Origin: Escherichia phage vB_EcoM_CRJP21
DNA: 64,000 nucleotides
Sequence record: OQ708376.1
Reading direction: 5' to 3' (one strand)
Shown here: positions 10,036 to 28,430 of the stretch, one piece after another
Layout: each line of letters opens with the position of its first letter
How positions within the stretch are numbered: the stretch's first letter is position 1
Notes under the pieces: generated by a model
The model's database searches: none
What the model was told of the DNA's origin: nothing
The model's input: the letters and a program-made list of their open reading frames with translations, nothing else
Program-made: the position numbers and the translations under genes

Positions 10036-10227
10036 ATGTTGATTTATCAAAGTGATAATATTCGTGTTATGCAGCATCCCTACTTACAAATCTTTGATGT
10101 GCAGCAGTATATGGAAGGTGATGACCCAAGAACCTATGGTCGTAAGTATGATTACTTCACTGTAAAGCAGTGTAAAAATATTAACGAAGTACGACAATTA
10201 GTTCAAGAACTTCAAAACAAAGGTTGA
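10036..10227 (+). CDS. hypothetical protein (63 aa)
   Basis: ORF track 9982-10227; ATG 10036 after AAGGA. Confidence 0.45.
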   Translation: MLIYQSDNIRVMQHPYLQIFDVQQYMEGDDPRTYGRKYDYFTVKQCKNINEVRQLVQELQNKG

Positions 10228-10256
10228 CTTCGGTCAGCCTTTTTTGTTATAATTCT
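10221..10256 (+). terminator. bifunctional terminator/promoter element (GGTTGAC-TTCG-GTCAGCC + T-run; -35 TTGACT in stem, TATAAT downstream)
   Basis: 8 bp stem with UUCG loop and T5; TTGACT-N18-TATAAT. Confidence 0.7.
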
Positions 10257-11927: not shown

Positions 11928-12500
11928 ATGAATCGTAAAGGTCGTTTTAAAGTATCAAAAAAGAACAAAAGTTCTAGGTTTAAACCTATTGTTTTAACAG
12001 TTAAATCTAACAAAGATTTAACTGCACTTAGTAAAAAGATAATTTCATCTAAGATTGAAGTATCATACGTAAATTCATTAAAATATATGAATGTCAAACC
12101 ACTGGACCAACTCATTTCACTTATATTTGAACGTAATGATTTTGAGATATCAGTAGATGATTATAGAGCCTATAATGCTGGTTTCATTAATGTTACTTGT
12201 AATAAAAAACTAACTGAGTTGGAAAATTTGTCATGTATAATAAATCTAGATAAAGGTGTTGTGAAGTACCATTTTGTACATTTCACTAATATCAATAATG
12301 GAATGGGTGTACAATCCAGACCTATAGTGCCTACGTGTGATGTTACTAAATTAGCAAAGCTCAATGATGAAGAATATTTTCAAGAAAGCATTGTAACTGA
12401 GCATTTAGATGATATAATAGCTACTTACAAAGAATGCATATGGGTGTTGAATGCTATAAAACCTAAATTGTGTTTAATGAATATTGTTCGTGATTTATGA
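11928..12500 (+). CDS. hypothetical protein (190 aa)
   Basis: ORF track 11904-12500; ATG 11928 after GAGGAAAT. Confidence 0.5.
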   Translation: MNRKGRFKVSKKNKSSRFKPIVLTVKSNKDLTALSKKIISSKIEVSYVNSLKYMNVKPLDQLISLIFERNDFEISVDDYRAYNAGFINVTCNKKLTELENLSCIINLDKGVVKYHFVHFTNINNGMGVQSRPIVPTCDVTKLAKLNDEEYFQESIVTEHLDDIIATYKECIWVLNAIKPKLCLMNIVRDL

Positions 12501-16300: not shown

Positions 16301-16307
16301 TAATAAA

Positions 16308-16340
16308 AGGGTTGACTTCGGTCAGCCTTTTTTGTTATGA
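16308..16340 (+). terminator. bifunctional terminator/promoter element
   Basis: GGGTTGAC-TTCG-GTCAGCC + T6. Confidence 0.7.
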
Positions 16341-16369
16341 TGTTGATATTAACTACAGAGGATAAAGTA

Positions 16370-20527: not shown

Positions 20528-20797
20528 ATGTACGCACTGTATAATAAAGAAAAGAAACGATTTGCTAAGGTTGAAATTTCGATTGATACATTTGATATGT
20601 TGGAGTACTGTATTGTAACTGACCTATATGCTAACTTGTATTACGTTCTTGATGACGTATCAGTACTGCAACGATTGCTTGAGAATTCCAAAAGTCAATG
20701 CCAGGGCATCCATGATGGTTCATCTTATGAAACACCTGAGTGTTCCTACGGCTATCTGGACGGGTATGAGATTGTGAAGTTGGGGATCATTGAATAA
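20528..20797 (+). CDS. hypothetical protein (89 aa)
   Basis: ATG 20528 after GGAG. Confidence 0.45.
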   Translation: MYALYNKEKKRFAKVEISIDTFDMLEYCIVTDLYANLYYVLDDVSVLQRLLENSKSQCQGIHDGSSYETPECSYGYLDGYEIVKLGIIE

Positions 20798-20802
20798 AGA
20801 AA

Positions 20803-20836
20803 AGGGTTGACTTCGGTCAGCCCTTTTTGCTATAAT
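20803..20836 (+). terminator. bifunctional terminator/promoter element
   Basis: GGGTTGAC-TTCG-GTCAGCCC + T5; TTGACT-N18-TATAAT. Confidence 0.7.
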
Positions 20837-20864
20837 TATTTCATCAAGACGAGAGGATGAATAC

Positions 20865-21380
20865 ATGACACGCATTAACTTAGTACACGTTAAAGAACTT
20901 GCTGACCAACATCTGATGGCTGAATATCGTGAACTCCCACGTGTATTTGGTGCTGTACAAAAACACGTTCAAGCACGTAAGCGTGTACGTGATTTCAAAA
21001 TTAACAGTACTTATCTGTTAGGTTCAGGTCATGTGACATTCTTTTACGACAAGTTGCTGTACTTACAGAAGCGTCATATCGATATTGTTAACGAATGTTT
21101 GCGTCGTGGTATGAAGATTCAAAACACTGAAGTAAACGACATTAGCGGATTCCCTGCTGAGTTTTGTAATGACTACGTACCATCGGAGTCAGAGATTAAA
21201 ATGTCTCGTGACCGTTTGATTGAGAAGCTCCAGATGAAGCCTACGTGGTATAAGTTTACTGATGTTGAATGTCCACAGTACGTTAAAGATATGCAGAACG
21301 TAAGTAGTAAGAACGAATCTAGTACTGATATGTTCGACGAAATTGAAGAACAAATCAAAGATGAAATGAATAATTATTAA
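20865..21380 (+). CDS. denV: pyrimidine dimer DNA glycosylase (T4 endonuclease V homolog) with C-terminal extension
   Basis: N-terminus [34 protein letters not shown]...[10 protein letters not shown]...PTWYK closely matches T4 DenV as I recall it; AGAGGAT RBS. Confidence 0.85.
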
Positions 21381-21719: not shown

Positions 21720-22079
21720 ATGGCATCTTTAAGTGAAATCGCAGAATACAACCCACTAACAATCTCAACAATTCAACGTACAAAAACTTTTTATTTCCGT
21801 CCTTCTGATGGATGGAAACGTGGAATGAATGGTGACTATCGAGTACTGGAAGATTCACTAATCGAGCGTATCAACTCTGAACTACAGAAGTATGAAGGTG
21901 TTAAAGTTGTGCGTTCAACTTCTCGTTATTTTGAGTACTACATTGAGTCTTCAACTGTAAATGAAAACTCATCATTCTCGGTGGACAACACTGATATTCT
22001 TCGTAATGCAGTTGGTCTGTTATGCAACATTGCAGAAGAAATGGGCTTAACTATTACTACTATGAGTGAATTAGAATAA
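21720..22079 (+). CDS. hypothetical protein (119 aa)
   Basis: GAGGAAT RBS. Confidence 0.55.
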   Translation: MASLSEIAEYNPLTISTIQRTKTFYFRPSDGWKRGMNGDYRVLEDSLIERINSELQKYEGVKVVRSTSRYFEYYIESSTVNENSSFSVDNTDILRNAVGLLCNIAEEMGLTITTMSELE

Positions 22080-22083
22080 CATA

Positions 22084-22118
22084 AAGGGTTGACTTCGGTC
22101 AGCCCTTTTTGCTATAAT
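22084..22118 (+). terminator. bifunctional terminator/promoter element
   Basis: GGGTTGAC-TTCG-GTCAGCCC + T5; TATAAT downstream. Confidence 0.7.
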
Positions 22119-22144
22119 ACTTTCATCAACAGAAGAGGTAACAC

Positions 22145-22375
22145 ATGAAACTATCTTTTATACGATTGGCTGAATTCTTTGGTACTGATGTAATTACTCT
22201 ACAACAAATAGCAGATAATACATCATTAACTACGCAAGAAGTACTTGACTTAGATGTAATTCAGTGCAATAATACTTCAATCGATTACAAAGAAGGTCTT
22301 GTCGAAAAAGATAAGATTCAGGCTAAGATTAATGGTGCTGGACGGGTTCAGTACTGGAAAGCTATATTAAGTTGA
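22145..22375 (+). CDS. hypothetical protein (76 aa)
   Basis: AGAGG RBS. Confidence 0.5.
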   Translation: MKLSFIRLAEFFGTDVITLQQIADNTSLTTQEVLDLDVIQCNNTSIDYKEGLVEKDKIQAKINGAGRVQYWKAILS

Positions 22376-22390
22376 ATTGGAGATTTGTAT

Positions 22391-24034
22391 ATGATTGGAA
22401 GTTTTTGTTTTATTGACAAAAAAAAACGTTCAAAACCTTATATTATTGCTGAAAAGGTAAGAAATATATTTTCTAATATAAAAGAAATAAATTGTGACTT
22501 TATTGGTTTTGATATTAACTCAATACTTGAATGGGAAGGGGAAAAAACATATATTTTATATGAAATAAATGGTATAACAAAAAAGATTAGATATGATATT
22601 CTAAGACAACATTCTAATAATGGTTCTTTTCCGAATAAAAAACATTTTAATTCTGAAGAATTAAAAAAATGTAGTAAAGAAAAAAAAATATTTGATTATG
22701 ATAAGTCAATGAGATTGTCATCTTATTATTCAACACCAAATATAATAACGGTTGGTGATAAAGATATATCATATTTTACTGCTCTTCAGTTAGAAGCTAT
22801 ATCTCCATATATGCATTTTAACTCTATCACACCCACTGAATATTCGAAAAAAATATTGAATAAGATAAAAGAGTTTAAAAATGTTGAAGTTATTTTTTAT
22901 GGATTTTATGTATCATACTATTCAGAATGGAATAACAAAAAAACAAAAATAGTAATATCTTTTAATGAATATGTTACCTATCATATGACAATTGATGATT
23001 TTTTATATAGTTTAGATAGTAATATAACAGATATTCCTCGTTTTAATTATAATAATGAAAATTTTATTTATCGTATGATGTTTTTTGGATATGCTAATAA
23101 TCATACTTTTGATTTATCAAATTTAAACATTAAAAATTCCAAATCAATAATTAGAAAAAAATGTAAAGTATGTAAAAGTACTGATGTAGTGAGTATTGCA
23201 CAACATATTAGGAATCCTAGTTGCTCTGTATGTTTTTATAATACTGAAAAATTTAATTATAATGAATATGAAGCATGTGAAGAAGTTGTTAATGAGTATA
23301 AGGGATTTCATTATATGAATCATGATAATATAAAATTCATTCCAATTGGATGTTCTTACACACCATTTGAATGGTATGAAATAATAAAATATAAGGGTGG
23401 TGATTCTTTTATTGGTTTTTATATTAACAGTTCTTCAGAGTTTGACGGTAATAAGACGAAAATTTTATTAGATATTAATGGGGTAATATTAACTCCAACA
23501 ATTCTCAATTTTCTTGAGAGATACGAAAATATGTATAAAGACCTAATAAATCCAACAATATCTTTGGAAATTATGTCTAATAATAAATACAAACCCTCGG
23601 TTGCACGTCACAAAAGAATCTTTAGTCAACCTATTTTAACATTAGGAGGGATTATTTCATCAAATGATTTATCATCATATGAAATGATAGTCGCATTGTT
23701 CCTAATCAAAAATAATATTGATTTTCATTTTCAATTCAGAACTGAAGAATCAATAGAATTTATGGGAAATAGAAGATATGATTTTTATGTACCAGATTAT
23801 AATCTAATCATTGAAGTTGATGGTGCACAGCATACAAACTATTGCCCAATATTTCATAGAAGTGAAGAGTGCTTACAAAAACAAATGGAAATTGATGAAA
23901 TAAAACTTGAATTTGCAAAAGAATCAGGATATAATTTTGCTCGCATTAACTATGATGAATCTATTGTTGATGAACTTATTAATGTGATTAAAAAAATATC
24001 ATCTGAAAATAATCAGATTATTAGAACTTATTAA
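22391..24034 (+). CDS. Asn/Lys-rich protein with C-terminal PD-(D/E)xK-like nuclease motif
   Basis: ORF track 22385-24034; C-terminal RRYDFYVPDYNLIIEVDGAQH resembles Vsr/DUF559-type fold; motif-level only. Confidence 0.45.
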   Translation: MIGSFCFIDKKKRSKPYIIAEKVRNIFSNIKEINCDFIGFDINSILEWEGEKTYILYEINGITKKIRYDILRQHSNNGSFPNKKHFNSEELKKCSKEKKIFDYDKSMRLSSYYSTPNIITVGDKDISYFTALQLEAISPYMHFNSITPTEYSKKILNKIKEFKNVEVIFYGFYVSYYSEWNNKKTKIVISFNEYVTYHMTIDDFLYSLDSNITDIPRFNYNNENFIYRMMFFGYANNHTFDLSNLNIKNSKSIIRKKCKVCKSTDVVSIAQHIRNPSCSVCFYNTEKFNYNEYEACEEVVNEYKGFHYMNHDNIKFIPIGCSYTPFEWYEIIKYKGGDSFIGFYINSSSEFDGNKTKILLDINGVILTPTILNFLERYENMYKDLINPTISLEIMSNNKYKPSVARHKRIFSQPILTLGGIISSNDLSSYEMIVALFLIKNNIDFHFQFRTEESIEFMGNRRYDFYVPDYNLIIEVDGAQHTNYCPIFHRSEECLQKQMEIDEIKLEFAKESGYNFARINYDESIVDELINVIKKISSENNQIIRTY

Positions 24035-24042
24035 TAATAAAA

Positions 24043-24076
24043 AGGGTTGACTTCGGTCGGCCCTTTTTGCTATAAT
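24043..24076 (+). terminator. bifunctional terminator/promoter element
   Basis: GGGTTGAC-TTCG-GTCGGCCC + T5; TATAAT downstream. Confidence 0.7.
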
Positions 24077-24104: not shown

Positions 24105-24878
24105 ATGAACCGTACAGAGAAAGCAATCCAAATCGAAAAGAACTTCAACTCCATGATGGCAGCACTGGAATGTCTTCTTGATACACAAACTAACTCTATC
24201 AACTCTCTGATCGTTTCTGGTAAGGGTGGTGTTGGTAAAACTTATAACGTTGACCAACGGTTGCAGAAAGCTGATGATAACTTTGAAATCGACTACAAGA
24301 AAATCAGTGGTAAAGTAACTACTTTGGGTCTGTATGAAGCACTGTATCGTTCACGTCATGCAGCATCTGTACTGTTACTTGATGACGTTGATATCTTCTC
24401 GGACGAGACTAATATTGATTTGCTTAAAGCTGTGTTGGATACGTCAGAGAAGCGTGTAGTTTCTTACGCGACTTCTGCTAAGTACTTGGAACAGCAGGGT
24501 ATCCCTAAGCAGTTTGAATTCCGTGGTAAAGTAATCTTTCTGACTAACAAAAACCTGTCACAGATTGCTAAAGGTAAAAGCAGCTTAGCACCACACATCG
24601 ATGCACTGATCACTCGTAGTATCTTTGTTGACCTGCAACTGTTCACCAACGAAGAAGTGATGATTCACATTGAGAACATCATGAACAAAACTAACATCCT
24701 TGAAAACAATGGTGTTAACAAAAATGGTTGTAAAGCAATCCTGAATTGGATGCTGAGCAATGAAGATCGTCTACGTAGTCCTTCACTGCGTATGCCAGTA
24801 CTGATCGCTGGTCTGTATAATAAATTCCCATACGATTGGGAGTCAATGGCAGAGAATATGTTCCTTGATAAAATTTAA
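24105..24878 (+). CDS. P-loop NTPase (Walker A SGKGGVGKT, Walker B-like LLLDDVD)
   Basis: GGGTAACG RBS; Walker motifs read directly. Confidence 0.55.
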   Translation: MNRTEKAIQIEKNFNSMMAALECLLDTQTNSINSLIVSGKGGVGKTYNVDQRLQKADDNFEIDYKKISGKVTTLGLYEALYRSRHAASVLLLDDVDIFSDETNIDLLKAVLDTSEKRVVSYATSAKYLEQQGIPKQFEFRGKVIFLTNKNLSQIAKGKSSLAPHIDALITRSIFVDLQLFTNEEVMIHIENIMNKTNILENNGVNKNGCKAILNWMLSNEDRLRSPSLRMPVLIAGLYNKFPYDWESMAENMFLDKI

Positions 24879-24945: not shown

Positions 24946-25287
24946 ATGCGTGAGTTTTTTGAATCTAATATAATGCTTGGTATTACACTGATATACATGT
25001 TTGTATTCTTGTTTTATCATTCAATTGTAATTAGTCTTTGGTATTTTAAAAGGAAAGTTGTTTTTAAATTGTATTCGTATGATAATGTATTCTTAGTTGT
25101 ATATAGCATTATACAAGGTGGGTTTATTTTATTTGGTGTGATGACATATGTGATTTACATGTTACAAATTGATAATACACCACACATTACACAATATGTT
25201 GTGTTTTCAGGACTAATCGTCTGGTTATTGGTGTGTACTATGTATTTTATTATTAAAGCTCGTGATAACTTTAAATGGGGATTCTAA
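24946..25287 (+). CDS. small membrane protein, paralog family (array B, 1 of 8)
   Basis: GGAGAC RBS; clear paralog of 25275-25625 (shared LIY-F-F-YH and WYFK-K-VFKLY segments). Confidence 0.6.
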   Translation: MREFFESNIMLGITLIYMFVFLFYHSIVISLWYFKRKVVFKLYSYDNVFLVVYSIIQGGFILFGVMTYVIYMLQIDNTPHITQYVVFSGLIVWLLVCTMYFIIKARDNFKWGF

Positions 25288-25625
25288 TGTTAGAATTTTT
25301 TAAATCAGATACAATGATTAGTATTACTTTGATTTATCTGTTTGGTTTTTTCTTTTATCATGCACTAGTTGTAGTACTATGGTATTTTAAAAAGAAAATT
25401 GTTTTTAAACTGTATCCAGTGAGGAATTCATCACTAGTTCTTTACACACTTGTTCAAGGTTTGTTTGCAATTGTTGGTCTTATGGCACACTTAATTTATT
25501 GTGCTAATCCTCACTTGAACTCAATCTCACAATATATTGTATTCTTTGGGTTGTTCATTTGGTTAGTTGCATACTTAATCCATCTCATTATTCATGGTAG
25601 AGATAAAATTCGCGGAGACTTCTAA
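25275..25625 (+). CDS. small membrane protein, paralog family (array B, 2 of 8)
   Basis: paralog of upstream gene; overlapping start. Confidence 0.6.
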   Translation: MGILMLEFFKSDTMISITLIYLFGFFFYHALVVVLWYFKKKIVFKLYPVRNSSLVLYTLVQGLFAIVGLMAHLIYCANPHLNSISQYIVFFGLFIWLVAYLIHLIIHGRDKIRGDF

Positions 25626-25972
25626 TGTTTGAAGCTTATCTTGAGTTTTTAAGGAGTAGTCCAGTTGCACATTCACTTGCAGGGATTATTCTAACAACTT
25701 ATGTATCATTTTGGTTAGTTATGTTTCTAGGATGGTATTTTAAACGACAATTCTATAAACGTAATGGTGAAGATTTTATGAATTCTGCCATTAATCAATC
25801 GTTGTTTGCATCAACATTGATTGCATGTATTGTAGCAACACTCACAGGAAAGGTACTACCAGCTTTTTCCGCAGTTTACGGCACACTTGGGATGATATGT
25901 TTAACTTTTATATTGACCATTAAAATTTGTTGTGTTATGATTGAACTTCGAAATAAGATACCGGAGGAATGA
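25625..25972 (+). CDS. small membrane protein, paralog family (array B, 3 of 8)
   Basis: ATGA overlap; WYFKRQFYKRN motif; tail RNKIPEE. Confidence 0.55.
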   Translation: MFEAYLEFLRSSPVAHSLAGIILTTYVSFWLVMFLGWYFKRQFYKRNGEDFMNSAINQSLFASTLIACIVATLTGKVLPAFSAVYGTLGMICLTFILTIKICCVMIELRNKIPEE

Positions 25973-26307
25973 TGGAGTACTTTATTGATTTACTGCCGTG
26001 GTATATGAAAGTTAGTACTTTGTACTATATTATTAGTGCTGGGTTCTACTTTCTGATGTGGTTCTTCAAACGACCAATTTCAGTATTCATCTCTGATAAC
26101 ATGCTGCAATTAAAATTACACGCATGGTTTGGTATGGCGATGATTATGCCAATTATTCACTACTCAATGATTAGTAGAGGTTTCCGTTCTAATGGTGAAC
26201 CAATTGTATTAGTATTCTATTGGGGTTCAACTATTGCATATGTAAGTTTGTTGTTGTTCCCAGTCGTTCATAAGTTACGTGCTAAAGTTCCTGATGCGAG
26301 GTACTAA
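25969..26307 (+). CDS. small membrane protein, paralog family (array B, 4 of 8)
   Basis: ATGA overlap; hydrophobic helices. Confidence 0.55.
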   Translation: MMEYFIDLLPWYMKVSTLYYIISAGFYFLMWFFKRPISVFISDNMLQLKLHAWFGMAMIMPIIHYSMISRGFRSNGEPIVLVFYWGSTIAYVSLLLFPVVHKLRAKVPDARY

Positions 26308-26621
26308 TGGATATAGTAACATTGATTTACACGTTGTATTCATTCTATTTCATTATGTGTTGGGTTGGATTTTTATTTGTACTCAAGATGTTTGATTATG
26401 TTGAAAAACAGATAAAAGAATTTTGTATTCCTTTTATCGGTTCAACCATTATTAGTGTTTCTTGTGTGTATTTTTTGGTTTTTGATCCACCAGATAACAC
26501 TGCAATGATTGACTTGATGTTACTACCAACAACTGTTACTTTTTTATGTAGTCTGATGCCGCCGATTAGCCGTGGACTAACAGAATTTAGACGCAATCAA
26601 AAGCGTAAACGAGGGATGTAA
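26307..26621 (+). CDS. small membrane protein, paralog family (array B, 5 of 8)
   Basis: overlapping start; basic C-terminal tail. Confidence 0.5.
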   Translation: MDIVTLIYTLYSFYFIMCWVGFLFVLKMFDYVEKQIKEFCIPFIGSTIISVSCVYFLVFDPPDNTAMIDLMLLPTTVTFLCSLMPPISRGLTEFRRNQKRKRGM

Positions 26622-26989
26622 TGGAAATTGCTCTTATTATCTTAACTGCTATGCTGTTTATTAGTACTGTGGTTATAATTGGTAAATTCTTTTGTGTATC
26701 ATTTTTAGAAACGGTATACGATGAAATTGCTGATGATTATGAATTACAAGCCGGATTTTTCATTACGTATTGGCTTAGTTTATTTTGTCTAGTCATTGCT
26801 TGGATTTTACATATCTTTAAATGGGGTATGGTAGACGGTGATCCTATTATGGCAATTATTGTTCTAGTGTTTGGTATCCTTGGTGGTGCAGTGCATAATC
26901 TAATGGTTATCTGGCAAACTGTTCAATATGTTTTGGTTCCCTATTTCGAAAAGATGCACAGTACAATTAAAAAACGTAAACGAGGTTAG
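26621..26989 (+). CDS. small membrane protein, paralog family (array B, 6 of 8)
   Basis: overlapping start; basic tail KKRKRG. Confidence 0.5.
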   Translation: MEIALIILTAMLFISTVVIIGKFFCVSFLETVYDEIADDYELQAGFFITYWLSLFCLVIAWILHIFKWGMVDGDPIMAIIVLVFGILGGAVHNLMVIWQTVQYVLVPYFEKMHSTIKKRKRG

Positions 26990-26990
26990 T

Positions 26991-27353
26991 ATGAACGGGA
27001 TAGAATTATCTTTCGTTGGTCAATTACTAGTAATGGCGTATACATTTATCTTCTCACTGAATGCATTCGTGTGCATTGGGAAGTACTTCCATAAGCGACC
27101 ATTATCAAATATATATGATGTAATCCAAAAGAGATATAGTCCAGCATATACTGTGTTGGGTACAGTATTCAATTTTGGTTTTATTGTATTAATAATTGGA
27201 CTGTTCACATCCTCTTTGAATACAATAACCTTTGGTCTTATGATATGTTCATTGGTATTAGCCGTAATTATATGTTGTTTAGTACTGCACCTTGTGGTAC
27301 TATTGTATATAAAGATCTCTGAAATCCACCAACGTTTGGGTATGAGGAAATAA
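26991..27353 (+). CDS. small membrane protein, paralog family (array B, 7 of 8)
   Basis: ORF track 26928-27353; ATG 26991 directly after upstream stop, CGAGG RBS. Confidence 0.5.
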   Translation: MNGIELSFVGQLLVMAYTFIFSLNAFVCIGKYFHKRPLSNIYDVIQKRYSPAYTVLGTVFNFGFIVLIIGLFTSSLNTITFGLMICSLVLAVIICCLVLHLVVLLYIKISEIHQRLGMRK

Positions 27354-27354
27354 T

Positions 27355-27726
27355 ATGAGTTACCGTGAGATATTTTCCATTATTTCAATTATTATGTTCA
27401 GTACTGGAACACTGGTATGGTTATTATACTTCTTCTGTATTAATCCAGTGTATAATATGTTATGTAATATTAAATCAAGTGCCGGATATATCACTTTTAT
27501 GGTCTTTATGGGATATTATTGTCTAAGCATTTTAGGTGTTGTTTTGGTTGTTATATTTGATGTGGGACCAAATAGTGATGGTATGGAAATACATGAATTA
27601 ATAACCATGTTTGGATGTATGATACCAACAGCACTACTGTTTGTAGCTACTGGTAGTGGATTGATAAAATTATATAATTATTTAAAATCCATTCATAATT
27701 CCATTCATAATAAGCGTATGTCATAA
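27355..27726 (+). CDS. small membrane protein, paralog family (array B, 8 of 8)
   Basis: ORF directly after upstream stop. Confidence 0.5.
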   Translation: MSYREIFSIISIIMFSTGTLVWLLYFFCINPVYNMLCNIKSSAGYITFMVFMGYYCLSILGVVLVVIFDVGPNSDGMEIHELITMFGCMIPTALLFVATGSGLIKLYNYLKSIHNSIHNKRMS

Positions 27727-27767: not shown

Positions 27768-28430
27768 ATGATGAAATCAAAATTAGGTTTGTTTTATAAA
27801 AATTATTTTGTTAAACAACGTAAATTTATAAAAAAATATTTCTCTGGAGAGAAGTCTAGTCCTATAATCTTTAAAAGACCAAGTTATAATACTTACTTAG
27901 CTGGTGCTAAACAGTCTAAGAAATTTATTACTCTTTTACATAAAAACAACATTAAAGCTTCTTATGTTGAAACGAGAAGAAACTCATCAATAACTCCGGG
28001 TGATTTTATTGAGTACGGATGTTTCAATATTAAGTACAATGATAATACATACTTTATGGATATTGATTGTAATACATCCAATCTTTTTAACATTGTAGTA
28101 AATCCATTAAAACAATATAATGTTTATGGTGATTCTATTATCAAATTAATCAAAAACAAAGATGGCTTTGATTTTGAAATAAATGTTTTAGATGATAATT
28201 TTGACGAAGTACCCGTAAACCCTGAAATCTGTGATATTTTAAACAGTTTAAAAGGTAGTACCTACAATATATCATCTGATTTAATGTTTCAGTACTCATT
28301 AATCCATAAAGATATTGAAAAGTATATTGAATGCTCCAGAATTTTGAATTTTCTCTATGATGAATTTAAAAAGAGTTCTAAAATAACTGCATACACTTTG
28401 TACAATATTCCTAAAATGGTGAATCTTTGA
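27768..28430 (+). CDS. hypothetical protein (220 aa)
   Basis: AAGGAG RBS; converges with minus-strand array. Confidence 0.55.
   Translation: MMKSKLGLFYKNYFVKQRKFIKKYFSGEKSSPIIFKRPSYNTYLAGAKQSKKFITLLHKNNIKASYVETRRNSSITPGDFIEYGCFNIKYNDNTYFMDIDCNTSNLFNIVVNPLKQYNVYGDSIIKLIKNKDGFDFEINVLDDNFDEVPVNPEICDILNSLKGSTYNISSDLMFQYSLIHKDIEKYIECSRILNFLYDEFKKSSKITAYTLYNIPKMVNL

Follow-up and report, generated by a model that had tools for sequence, protein, structure and literature searches.

A probable free-standing homing endonuclease gene of the Vsr-like class at a nuclease-gene hotspot of an Asteriusvirus jumbo phage

Mobile genes that encode homing nucleases are frequent in phages. The prototype of the EDxHD or Vsr-like homing endonucleases is I-Bth0305I (PDB 3R3P; Taylor et al. 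2011, PMC3239194), a protein of 266 amino acids (aa) which is encoded in a group I intron in recA, carries two NUMOD/helix-turn-helix motifs and possesses the motif residues E170, D196, N208, H213 and D222 (PMC3239194). The free-standing Hef-type homing endonuclease genes (HEGs) of T4-related phages (Sandegren et al. 2005) were assigned to the same family, and the repair enzyme Vsr of E. coli (PDB 1VSR/1CW0) consists of one domain, contains a zinc site and recognises T:G mismatches by means of intercalating tryptophans (PMC3239194). Many free-standing HEGs of T4 are promoterless cassettes, around which co-conversion has been described (PMC2988022), and HEGs sit at boundaries of genetic exchange (PMC10448857). 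Here, we describe an open reading frame (ORF) in a stretch of 64,000 nucleotides (nt) of Escherichia phage vB_EcoM_CRJP21 (sequence record OQ708376.1; the whole stretch is called the window below). This ORF is probably a free-standing HEG of the Vsr-like/EDxHD class in an Asteriusvirus jumbo phage. Vsr-like HEGs are already established as intron-encoded (I-Bth0305I) and as free-standing genes (Hef type), and PHROGs already label the family. Less ordinary are an orphan family of cysteine-free repeats and a clean hotspot with six occupants and with modules common to two catalytic classes.

The ORF was delimited as follows.

22391 to 24034, plus strand: nuclease ORF, 547 aa from ATG, stop codon TAA at 24032-24034, Shine-Dalgarno sequence GGAG at 22380-22383.

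An alternative TTG start at 22385 would yield a protein of 549 aa; the ATG is favoured because the GGAG is located 7 nt 5' of it. The content of guanine plus cytosine (GC) of the ORF is 24.2% (14% at third codon positions), the lowest among the 27 window ORFs of at least 150 aa (median 36%). Likewise, the 2-kb bin 22001-24000 exhibited the GC minimum of the window (0.263; other bins 0.32-0.41). A first-pass annotation, made from the letters and the list of ORFs, had described the protein as compositionally extreme and rich in N, K, I and Y. This was borne out by residue shares of 12.6% I, 9.5% N, 9.0% K, 7.3% Y and 7.1% F, compared with 7.1, 7.5, 6.2, 5.6 and 4.4%, respectively, in the remaining long ORFs of the window, and it follows from the AT-rich base composition of the ORF. 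The protein is not of low complexity. A run of 547 codons free of stops has a probability of ~5e-25 at the composition of the ORF; in the remaining five frames 32-102 stops were counted. Thus, the open frame did not arise by chance, and the ORF is a genuine gene.

The identical 547-aa protein was found on 9 public contigs from independent samples, with the ORF intact and with the same two flanking genes every time. Its NCBI entry reads only 'hypothetical protein [Escherichia coli]'. All seven segments compared (~6.8 kb around the ORF) were 100% identical to a 348-kb contig in the E. coli assembly GCA_029580395.1, and the same nuclease gene is present on ~350-kb contigs of two further E. coli assemblies. 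Complete jumbo-phage genomes thus sit in bacterial assemblies, and their proteins are labelled E. coli. A DNA search of the ORF in distant mode against 50,697 phage records resulted in zero matches, and no paralogues were found within the window. The low GC and the lack of DNA matches point to a gene of foreign composition.

The nuclease function was assigned to the C-terminal part of the protein.

23663 to 24010, plus strand: Vsr-like PD-(D/E)xK nuclease domain of the EDxHD type, aa 425-540, candidate catalytic residues E431, D464, E475, D477, H481, D502 and K505.

The first-pass annotation had quoted a C-terminal motif, RRYDFYVPDYNLIIEVDGAQH, which is present at aa 461-481, and had taken it for the mark of a PD-(D/E)xK or Vsr-like nuclease. 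The predicted fold, the conserved catalytic residues and matches to PHROG 9084 ('homing endonuclease', 3e-18) and PHROG 559 (8e-20, aa 219-541) support this assignment. Matches obtained by tblastn against phages were confined to aa ~357-545 and included, at ~31% identity, proteins which are annotated as VSR homing endonucleases associated with group I introns, from phages of Staphylococcus, Bacillus and Lactobacillus. An exhaustive phmmer search of 1.84 billion representatives yielded 3319 proteins at E<=1e-3. The best 150 of these 3319 matches all fell within aa ~371-547 (centre ~420-545), except P0006, a 100%-identical fragment of the same protein (aa 363-547). A word-indexed protein search with the full protein gave five weak matches, all of them C-terminal. 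To Vsr-like nucleases with zinc-finger repeats the domain is 36-46% identical over ~110 aa. A single-sequence PDB search of the C-terminus revealed nothing informative.

In an alignment of 38 sequences D464, E475, G478, H481, D502 and K505 were invariant. In an alignment of 22 sequences E431 was conserved to at least 90%, and D464, E475, H481 and D502 were again invariant. These residues correspond to the E-D-x-H-D set of I-Bth0305I and Vsr (as defined in PMC3239194). The composite motif E...D...x...H...D is thus present in the protein, with a D-to-H spacing of 17 residues here and in I-Bth0305I. AlphaFold2 modelled aa 418-547, given the family alignment, with a predicted local distance difference test score (pLDDT) of 92.2 and a predicted template modelling score of 0.83. 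The fold match that the proposal of a PD-(D/E)xK nuclease calls for was found when this model was compared with the PDB using Foldseek (1vsr, E 1e-4). A fold search of a viral structure library gave 178 matches at E<=1e-3, many of them named homing endonuclease, group I intron protein, VSR or DUF559. The predicted model and the conserved residues place the domain in the Vsr-like PD-(D/E)xK fold.

The N-terminal 415 aa are almost an orphan at the level of sequence comparison. They contain four modules.

22433 to 22630, plus strand: repeat M1, aa 15-80, cysteine-free, helix followed by the pattern FIGFxIxS..EW...KT..h.hNG, presumed DNA-binding.
22826 to 23035, plus strand: repeat M2, aa 146-215, second copy of the cysteine-free module (z 7.2-8.8).
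23045 to 23275, plus strand: zinc module, aa 219-295, C258-x2-C261 ... C278-x2-C281, resembling the treble-clef repeats (DUF4379/DUF723) of relatives.
23336 to 23554, plus strand: repeat M4, aa 316-388, third cysteine-free copy, best conserved in relatives.

The three cysteine-free repeats of ~65 aa matched each other in Smith-Waterman alignments with z values of 7-10 (M1 against M2 7.2, M1 against M4 9.8), and 0 of 500 shuffles scored as high. M2 also matched aa 190-273 of a 628-aa nuclease of phage slurp01 (blastp, E 1.5e-4). M4 matched the nuclease P0048 over aa 305-382 (domain E 1.8e-9), with z 13.5 when aligned to the module of P0048, and, in tblastn, Escherichia phage A4 and Klebsiella phage KP13-7. 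Altogether, the cysteine-free module occurs in the G17 and ELP-22 nucleases, in P0048, in the slurp01 protein, where it is joined to a different catalytic domain, and in a few ORFs of Escherichia and Klebsiella jumbo phages. The zinc module, CxxC-16-CxxC (C258, C261, C278, C281), sits between M2 and M4. Many relatives gave weak secondary matches in phmmer, located at aa 236-313, and the relatives matching the zinc region carry DUF4379 (treble-clef), DUF723 or CapR repeats ahead of the same nuclease. Such 'beads-on-a-string' DNA-binding repeats are known from other phage HEGs (PMC10448857). By this analogy, the repeats and the zinc module are most likely a targeting or DNA-binding array. Possibly, the orphan cysteine-free repeat represents a small DNA-binding module of a new kind.

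HEGs often degenerate once fixed, as part of their life cycle. The gene could accordingly be a decaying or inactive remnant, with an open frame, a non-functional nuclease or targeting array, and persistence by hitch-hiking. The lack of cysteines in three N-terminal repeats, unlike the zinc-finger repeats of most relatives, and the occurrence of the gene at one locus only would fit such a fate. However, every catalytic residue is kept, the frame of 547 codons stayed open at 24% GC (P ~5e-25), and the carriers differ by one nucleotide only. Moreover, the cysteine-free repeats are common to the intact nucleases of slurp01, G17 and ELP-22 and to the likewise intact P0048; therefore, they represent a module family and not debris. 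We regard a remnant as rather improbable.

The gene is an insertion relative to the genomes of some close relatives, and its left border is the end of a conserved gene.

22373 to 24038, plus strand: inserted segment of ~1.67 kb relative to the empty allele of phage SD-2_S15 (...TTAAGT^AAAAAAAGGGTTGAC...), delimited by empty-site query and junction alignment.
22145 to 22375, plus strand: conserved gene of 76 aa, PHROG 34150, its last sense codon being the left insertion junction.

The surrounding DNA is 90-98% identical to that of Asteriusvirus jumbo coliphages, e.g. 121Q, PBECO4, G17 and UE-S1. Similarity to the relatives is lost at ~22361-22372, within the final codons of the 76-aa gene, and returns precisely with a terminator/promoter cassette downstream of the nuclease ORF. 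A synthetic empty-site query produced one contiguous match across the junction in Salmonella phage SD-2_S15 and three sister phages. In these Salmonella Asteriusviruses the 76-aa gene is directly followed by the cassette, and the site is empty. The insertion bounds at ~22373-24038 (TTAAGT / AAAAAAAGGGTTGAC) are defined by this empty allele. In UE-S1 neither the 76-aa gene nor the nuclease gene is present, and there is only one cassette. In further relatives the site is occupied by different genes.

G17: protein of 372 aa, Vsr-like.
ELP-22: protein of 474 aa, Vsr-like.
121Q and UB: protein of 487 aa, three CapR repeats and PHROG 681 endonuclease.
slurp01: protein of 628 aa, PHROG 681 endonuclease.
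WPEC3: protein of 516 aa, PHROG 681 endonuclease, upstream genes rearranged.

Thus, with one empty state, six different occupants and two nuclease classes the site is a nuclease-gene hotspot, and DNA-binding modules are common to the two catalytic classes found there. Rfam detected neither a group I intron nor any other family around the ORF. The gene is a free-standing insertion, absent or replaced in relatives, in the intergenic region between conserved genes with divergent flanks, a context as described for the EDxHD family and for free-standing phage HEGs.

Several observations concern the 76-aa gene itself. Its product is 92-93% identical to the homologues of G17 and UB, and its C-terminal tail varies with the insert (KAILS here, KGVLSNV in G17, KGILSNSI in UB). 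The coding sequence annotated in the empty allele of the Salmonella phage (L014 1501-1767) comprises 88 aa and runs past the hairpin of the cassette; its stop was read as the TAA inside the TATAAT box of the cassette. The 76-aa/88-aa sequence looks like that of a small helix-turn-helix protein.

Alternatively, the protein could be a domesticated nuclease of HEG origin which has kept its site-specific cleavage but serves the phage, e.g. by excluding competing Asteriusviruses or satellites (marker exclusion or an anti-parasite nuclease), and does not simply spread itself. Six different nucleases at one site could reflect phage competition, and the protein is identical and intact on 9 independent contigs. 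HEG-type nucleases and repeat DNA-binding domains act in phage-satellite conflicts (PMC10448857), and T4 HEGs cause marker exclusion (PMC2988022). Nevertheless, we consider domestication unlikely: presence or absence and replacement among relatives, the very low GC and the promoterless insertion fit a purely selfish element, and the analysis identified no satellite or target. Mechanistically the two explanations overlap, and sequence alone does not separate a domesticated nuclease from a HEG.

The unit which contains the nuclease gene is bounded by two copies of a terminator/promoter cassette.

22084 to 22118, plus strand: upstream cassette, UUCG-loop hairpin and U-run (-18.3 kcal/mol, z -5.5) overlapping the promoter TTGACT-18-TGcTATAAT.
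24042 to 24076, plus strand: downstream cassette at the right insertion junction, hairpin -18.7 kcal/mol, z -5.2.

The cassette is an exact repeat of 35 nt at 20802-20836, 22084-22118 and 24042-24076 (0 expected by chance), with diverged copies at 10219-10253 and 16307-16341. Its promoter scored 11/12 and includes an extended -10 element. The order of the unit is promoter, 76-aa gene, nuclease gene and terminator. Judged from this layout, the cassette at 22084 is likely the promoter for both genes, and the cassette at 24042 would end the nuclease transcript and provide the promoter of the gene downstream. Since the nuclease gene shares one promoter-terminator unit with the 76-aa gene, it looks like a promoterless cassette. 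No significant RNA structure was found over the ribosome-binding site of the nuclease gene, which leaves a translational repression as in T4 without evidence. The cassettes resemble promoter-stem-loop cassettes of T4-type phages. Furthermore, UE-S1 lacks exactly the unit between two cassette copies, as if the copies mediated deletion or insertion of the module, and matches to cassette segments also occur in Klebsiella, Yersinia and Vibrio jumbo phages.

The gene downstream of the cassette and a repair gene further upstream had been named as neighbours in the first-pass annotation.

24105 to 24878, plus strand: P-loop ATPase gene, Walker A motif GKGGVGKT, AAA_16 (4.5e-4), PHROG 1250 (6.5e-100).
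20865 to 21380: DenV homologue, Pfam Pyr_excise (5.9e-15).

Only the P-loop gene is a direct neighbour on the downstream side. The DenV homologue lies ~1 kb upstream of the nuclease ORF, with three ORFs (64, 119 and 76 aa) and two terminator/promoter cassettes in between. A small neighbourhood for DNA processing or defence, as had been suggested, did not hold up: the ORF is optional (absent from UE-S1 and SD-2_S15) and replaced in G17, ELP-22, 121Q, UB, WPEC3 and slurp01, and the nuclease gene sits within its own terminator-bounded unit, not next to DenV. A Vsr-like repair or restriction-like nuclease which acts together with DenV and/or the P-loop NTPase is the least probable explanation of the gene and is largely refuted by the insertion polymorphism. 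The nuclease gene is dispensable and replaceable, whereas DenV and the ATPase are conserved, and the cassettes separate it from both. There is no tryptophan in aa 418-547, in contrast to the intercalating W68/W86 of Vsr (PMC3239194), and the family alignment shows no conserved Vsr zinc site, C485, H489 and C494 all being unconserved. With 547 aa and a modular N-terminus the protein differs from the ~155-aa single-domain Vsr, and its domain order is opposite to that of PvuRts1I/AbaSI. PADLOC gave nothing significant for the ORF and its neighbours (best E 0.0066-0.0097 over ~30 residues; nothing for the 76-aa and 119-aa genes), and NCBIfam searches resulted in no meaningful matches.

The flanks of the insertion were compared with those of relatives and of other carriers. 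The identity of the 76-aa gene (85-95%) is lower than that of the DNA further upstream. The ATPase gene exists in two alleles which are only 60-73% identical (60-75% in the comparison of the window with G17, UB, ELP-22 and slurp01); the difference ends sharply on the downstream side, and from ~24900 on the identity to G17 and UB is 99-100%. Allele 1 is present in the window, UE-S1 and WPEC3, and allele 2 in G17, UB, ELP-22, slurp01 and the gene start of SD-2_S15. Among the nine carriers the HEG and its flanking genes show 0-1 mismatches in ~2.65 kb, compared with 13-24 in the next 2.1 kb, a contrast which comes from the carrier contigs that diverge further downstream (L009-L011). These patterns match the predictions for HEG-driven co-conversion (PMC2988022) and for nuclease genes at exchange boundaries (PMC10448857) without proving them, and the cleavage target or a co-conversion tract may lie in the ATPase gene. 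The ATPase allele type was also considered as a marker of immunity to the HEG and rejected: the empty UE-S1 has the allele of the window and the empty SD-2_S15 has the other.

Some results weigh against a Vsr-like HEG. The Pfam match to DUF559 (PF04480) stayed below the gathering cut-off (15.6 versus 20.6 bits), and profile-to-PDB sequence matches were weak although consistent (3hrl 0.019, 3r3p 0.52). For these reasons the family assignment is based on fold and motif. In the N-terminal 415 aa Pfam recognised no DNA-binding family, a NUMOD/helix-turn-helix region gave no Pfam match at E<=1, and a profile of the repeat alignment found nothing at E<=1 among 5.8 billion proteins. The full-length AlphaFold2 model had a pLDDT <50 over this region, from which only coarse secondary structure was noted. 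Descent of the cysteine-free repeat from a zinc module of the DUF4379/DUF723 type was not supported by hhalign (probability 3%), nor was a visual 'N..TKV/I' resemblance to zinc modules, and homology is not claimed. The exact 547-aa gene was found at one locus only; therefore, we infer mobility from the alternative occupants in relatives. Finally, the kind of nuclease or occupant at the site does not predict which ATPase allele is present. The dimorphism may predate the HEG because the allele of the window is common to the empty UE-S1 and to WPEC3.

A Vsr-like HEG nevertheless remains the probable identity of the gene, and it would act as follows. The promoterless gene would be transcribed together with the 76-aa gene from the promoter at 22089-22118, and the transcript would end at the 24042 hairpin. 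The N-terminal 415 aa, comprising the three cysteine-free repeats and the zinc module, would grip a long DNA target. In the Vsr-like domain Mg2+ would be held by D464 and D502, and H481 would be the general base. By analogy with I-Bth0305I the nuclease is probably dimeric. It would cut the homologous region of a co-infecting relative without this gene, either where the 76-aa gene and the terminator join without interruption or within an adjacent gene, e.g. that of the ATPase. With the HEG-carrying genome as template, recombinational repair would then introduce a copy of the gene and of its flanks into the cleaved genome.

More speculatively, the nuclease might recognise the junction with the palindromic cassette (AAGGGTTGACTTCGGTCAGCCCTTTTTGCTATAAT), which is found at numerous gene boundaries across the genome; the DNA-reading module that targets such cassettes would then be formed by the cysteine-free repeats. 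We regard this as a long shot. If true, HEGs would drive the shuffling of cassette-bounded modules in jumbo phages beyond sitting at their boundaries, and the repeats, which at this hotspot accompany either of two unrelated catalytic domains, would be a module not described before.

Further observations were made outside the inserted unit. A second variable slot lies at ~20797-20865 between a 95-aa ORF and denV, and in the window it holds the cassette only. This slot (L003 327-521, L005 1112-1525) contains an annotated HNH endonuclease in UB and WPEC3 and a 29-aa remnant ORF in ELP-22; JP4 lists an HNH endonuclease within its match, the location of which relative to the denV slot is provisional. 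At 24946-27726 eight tandem small ORFs (104-141 aa) of similar layout encode predicted hydrophobic, membrane-type proteins. The array looks like a paralogous family, the first member of which belongs to PHROG 19454, and its copy content varies between relatives. The low-GC ORFs at 27768-28430 (25.5%, PHROG 34359) and 11928-12497 (28.4%, PHROG 33518) may be recent acquisitions. At ~28411-30030 on the minus strand (L008 12021-13644) adjacent genes have weak Pfam matches to RCC1/WD40-like repeats, and a change in the sign of the GC skew near 28 kb marks the switch of transcription direction at these genes.

These findings are within expectation for large lytic phages. The entry 'hypothetical protein [Escherichia coli]' can now be annotated as a phage Vsr-like homing endonuclease, a designation to be read with the probability given above. 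The Asteriusvirus hotspot offers a natural system for HEG replacement at one site, for the swapping of repeat DNA-binding modules between catalytic domains and for sharp divergence boundaries made by HEGs, e.g. in the dimorphic ATPase gene.

Among the known systems, Vsr repair endonucleases differ from the 547-aa protein, which is multi-domain, lacks tryptophan and the zinc site in its nuclease domain and is encoded in a mobile insertion. PvuRts1I and AbaSI carry an N-terminal Vsr-like nuclease and a C-terminal SRA-like reader, an arrangement not found here, and no PADLOC model of a known anti-phage defence system matched the ORF or its neighbours. The protein shares with the I-Bth0305I family an N-terminal targeting region and a C-terminal nuclease. 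In contrast to I-Bth0305I, it is free-standing, neither an intron (Rfam) nor a split host gene being present; three cysteine-free repeats and a zinc module, with no NUMOD match, make up its N-terminus; and the gap between H481 and D502 is ~21 residues, compared with 9 there.

The gene resembles the seg and mob HEGs of T4 and the T5orf172 HEGs of ICP1 as an intergenic promoterless cassette of patchy distribution, with divergent flanks, patterns that fit co-conversion, repeated modules and domain shuffling (PMC2988022; PMC10448857), although their catalytic domains (GIY-YIG, HNH, T5orf172) are unrelated. Like the Hef-type HEGs as described in PMC3239194, it stands free between conserved genes, replaces other HEGs and has Vsr-like catalytic residues. 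This likeness is taken from that description, and the Hef genes belong to Tevenvirinae and to the nrd region. Further counterparts are the zinc-finger-repeat nucleases of PHROG 559/9084 in phages and giant viruses, with the same C-terminal domain and with tandem small modules followed by the nuclease. In the present protein, however, three of four modules have no cysteine ligands and constitute a repeat family of their own, with members detected in only a few Asteriusvirus/Rak2-like nucleases. Members of the PHROG 559/9084 type, those of G17 (372 aa) and ELP-22 (474 aa), occupy the very same site.

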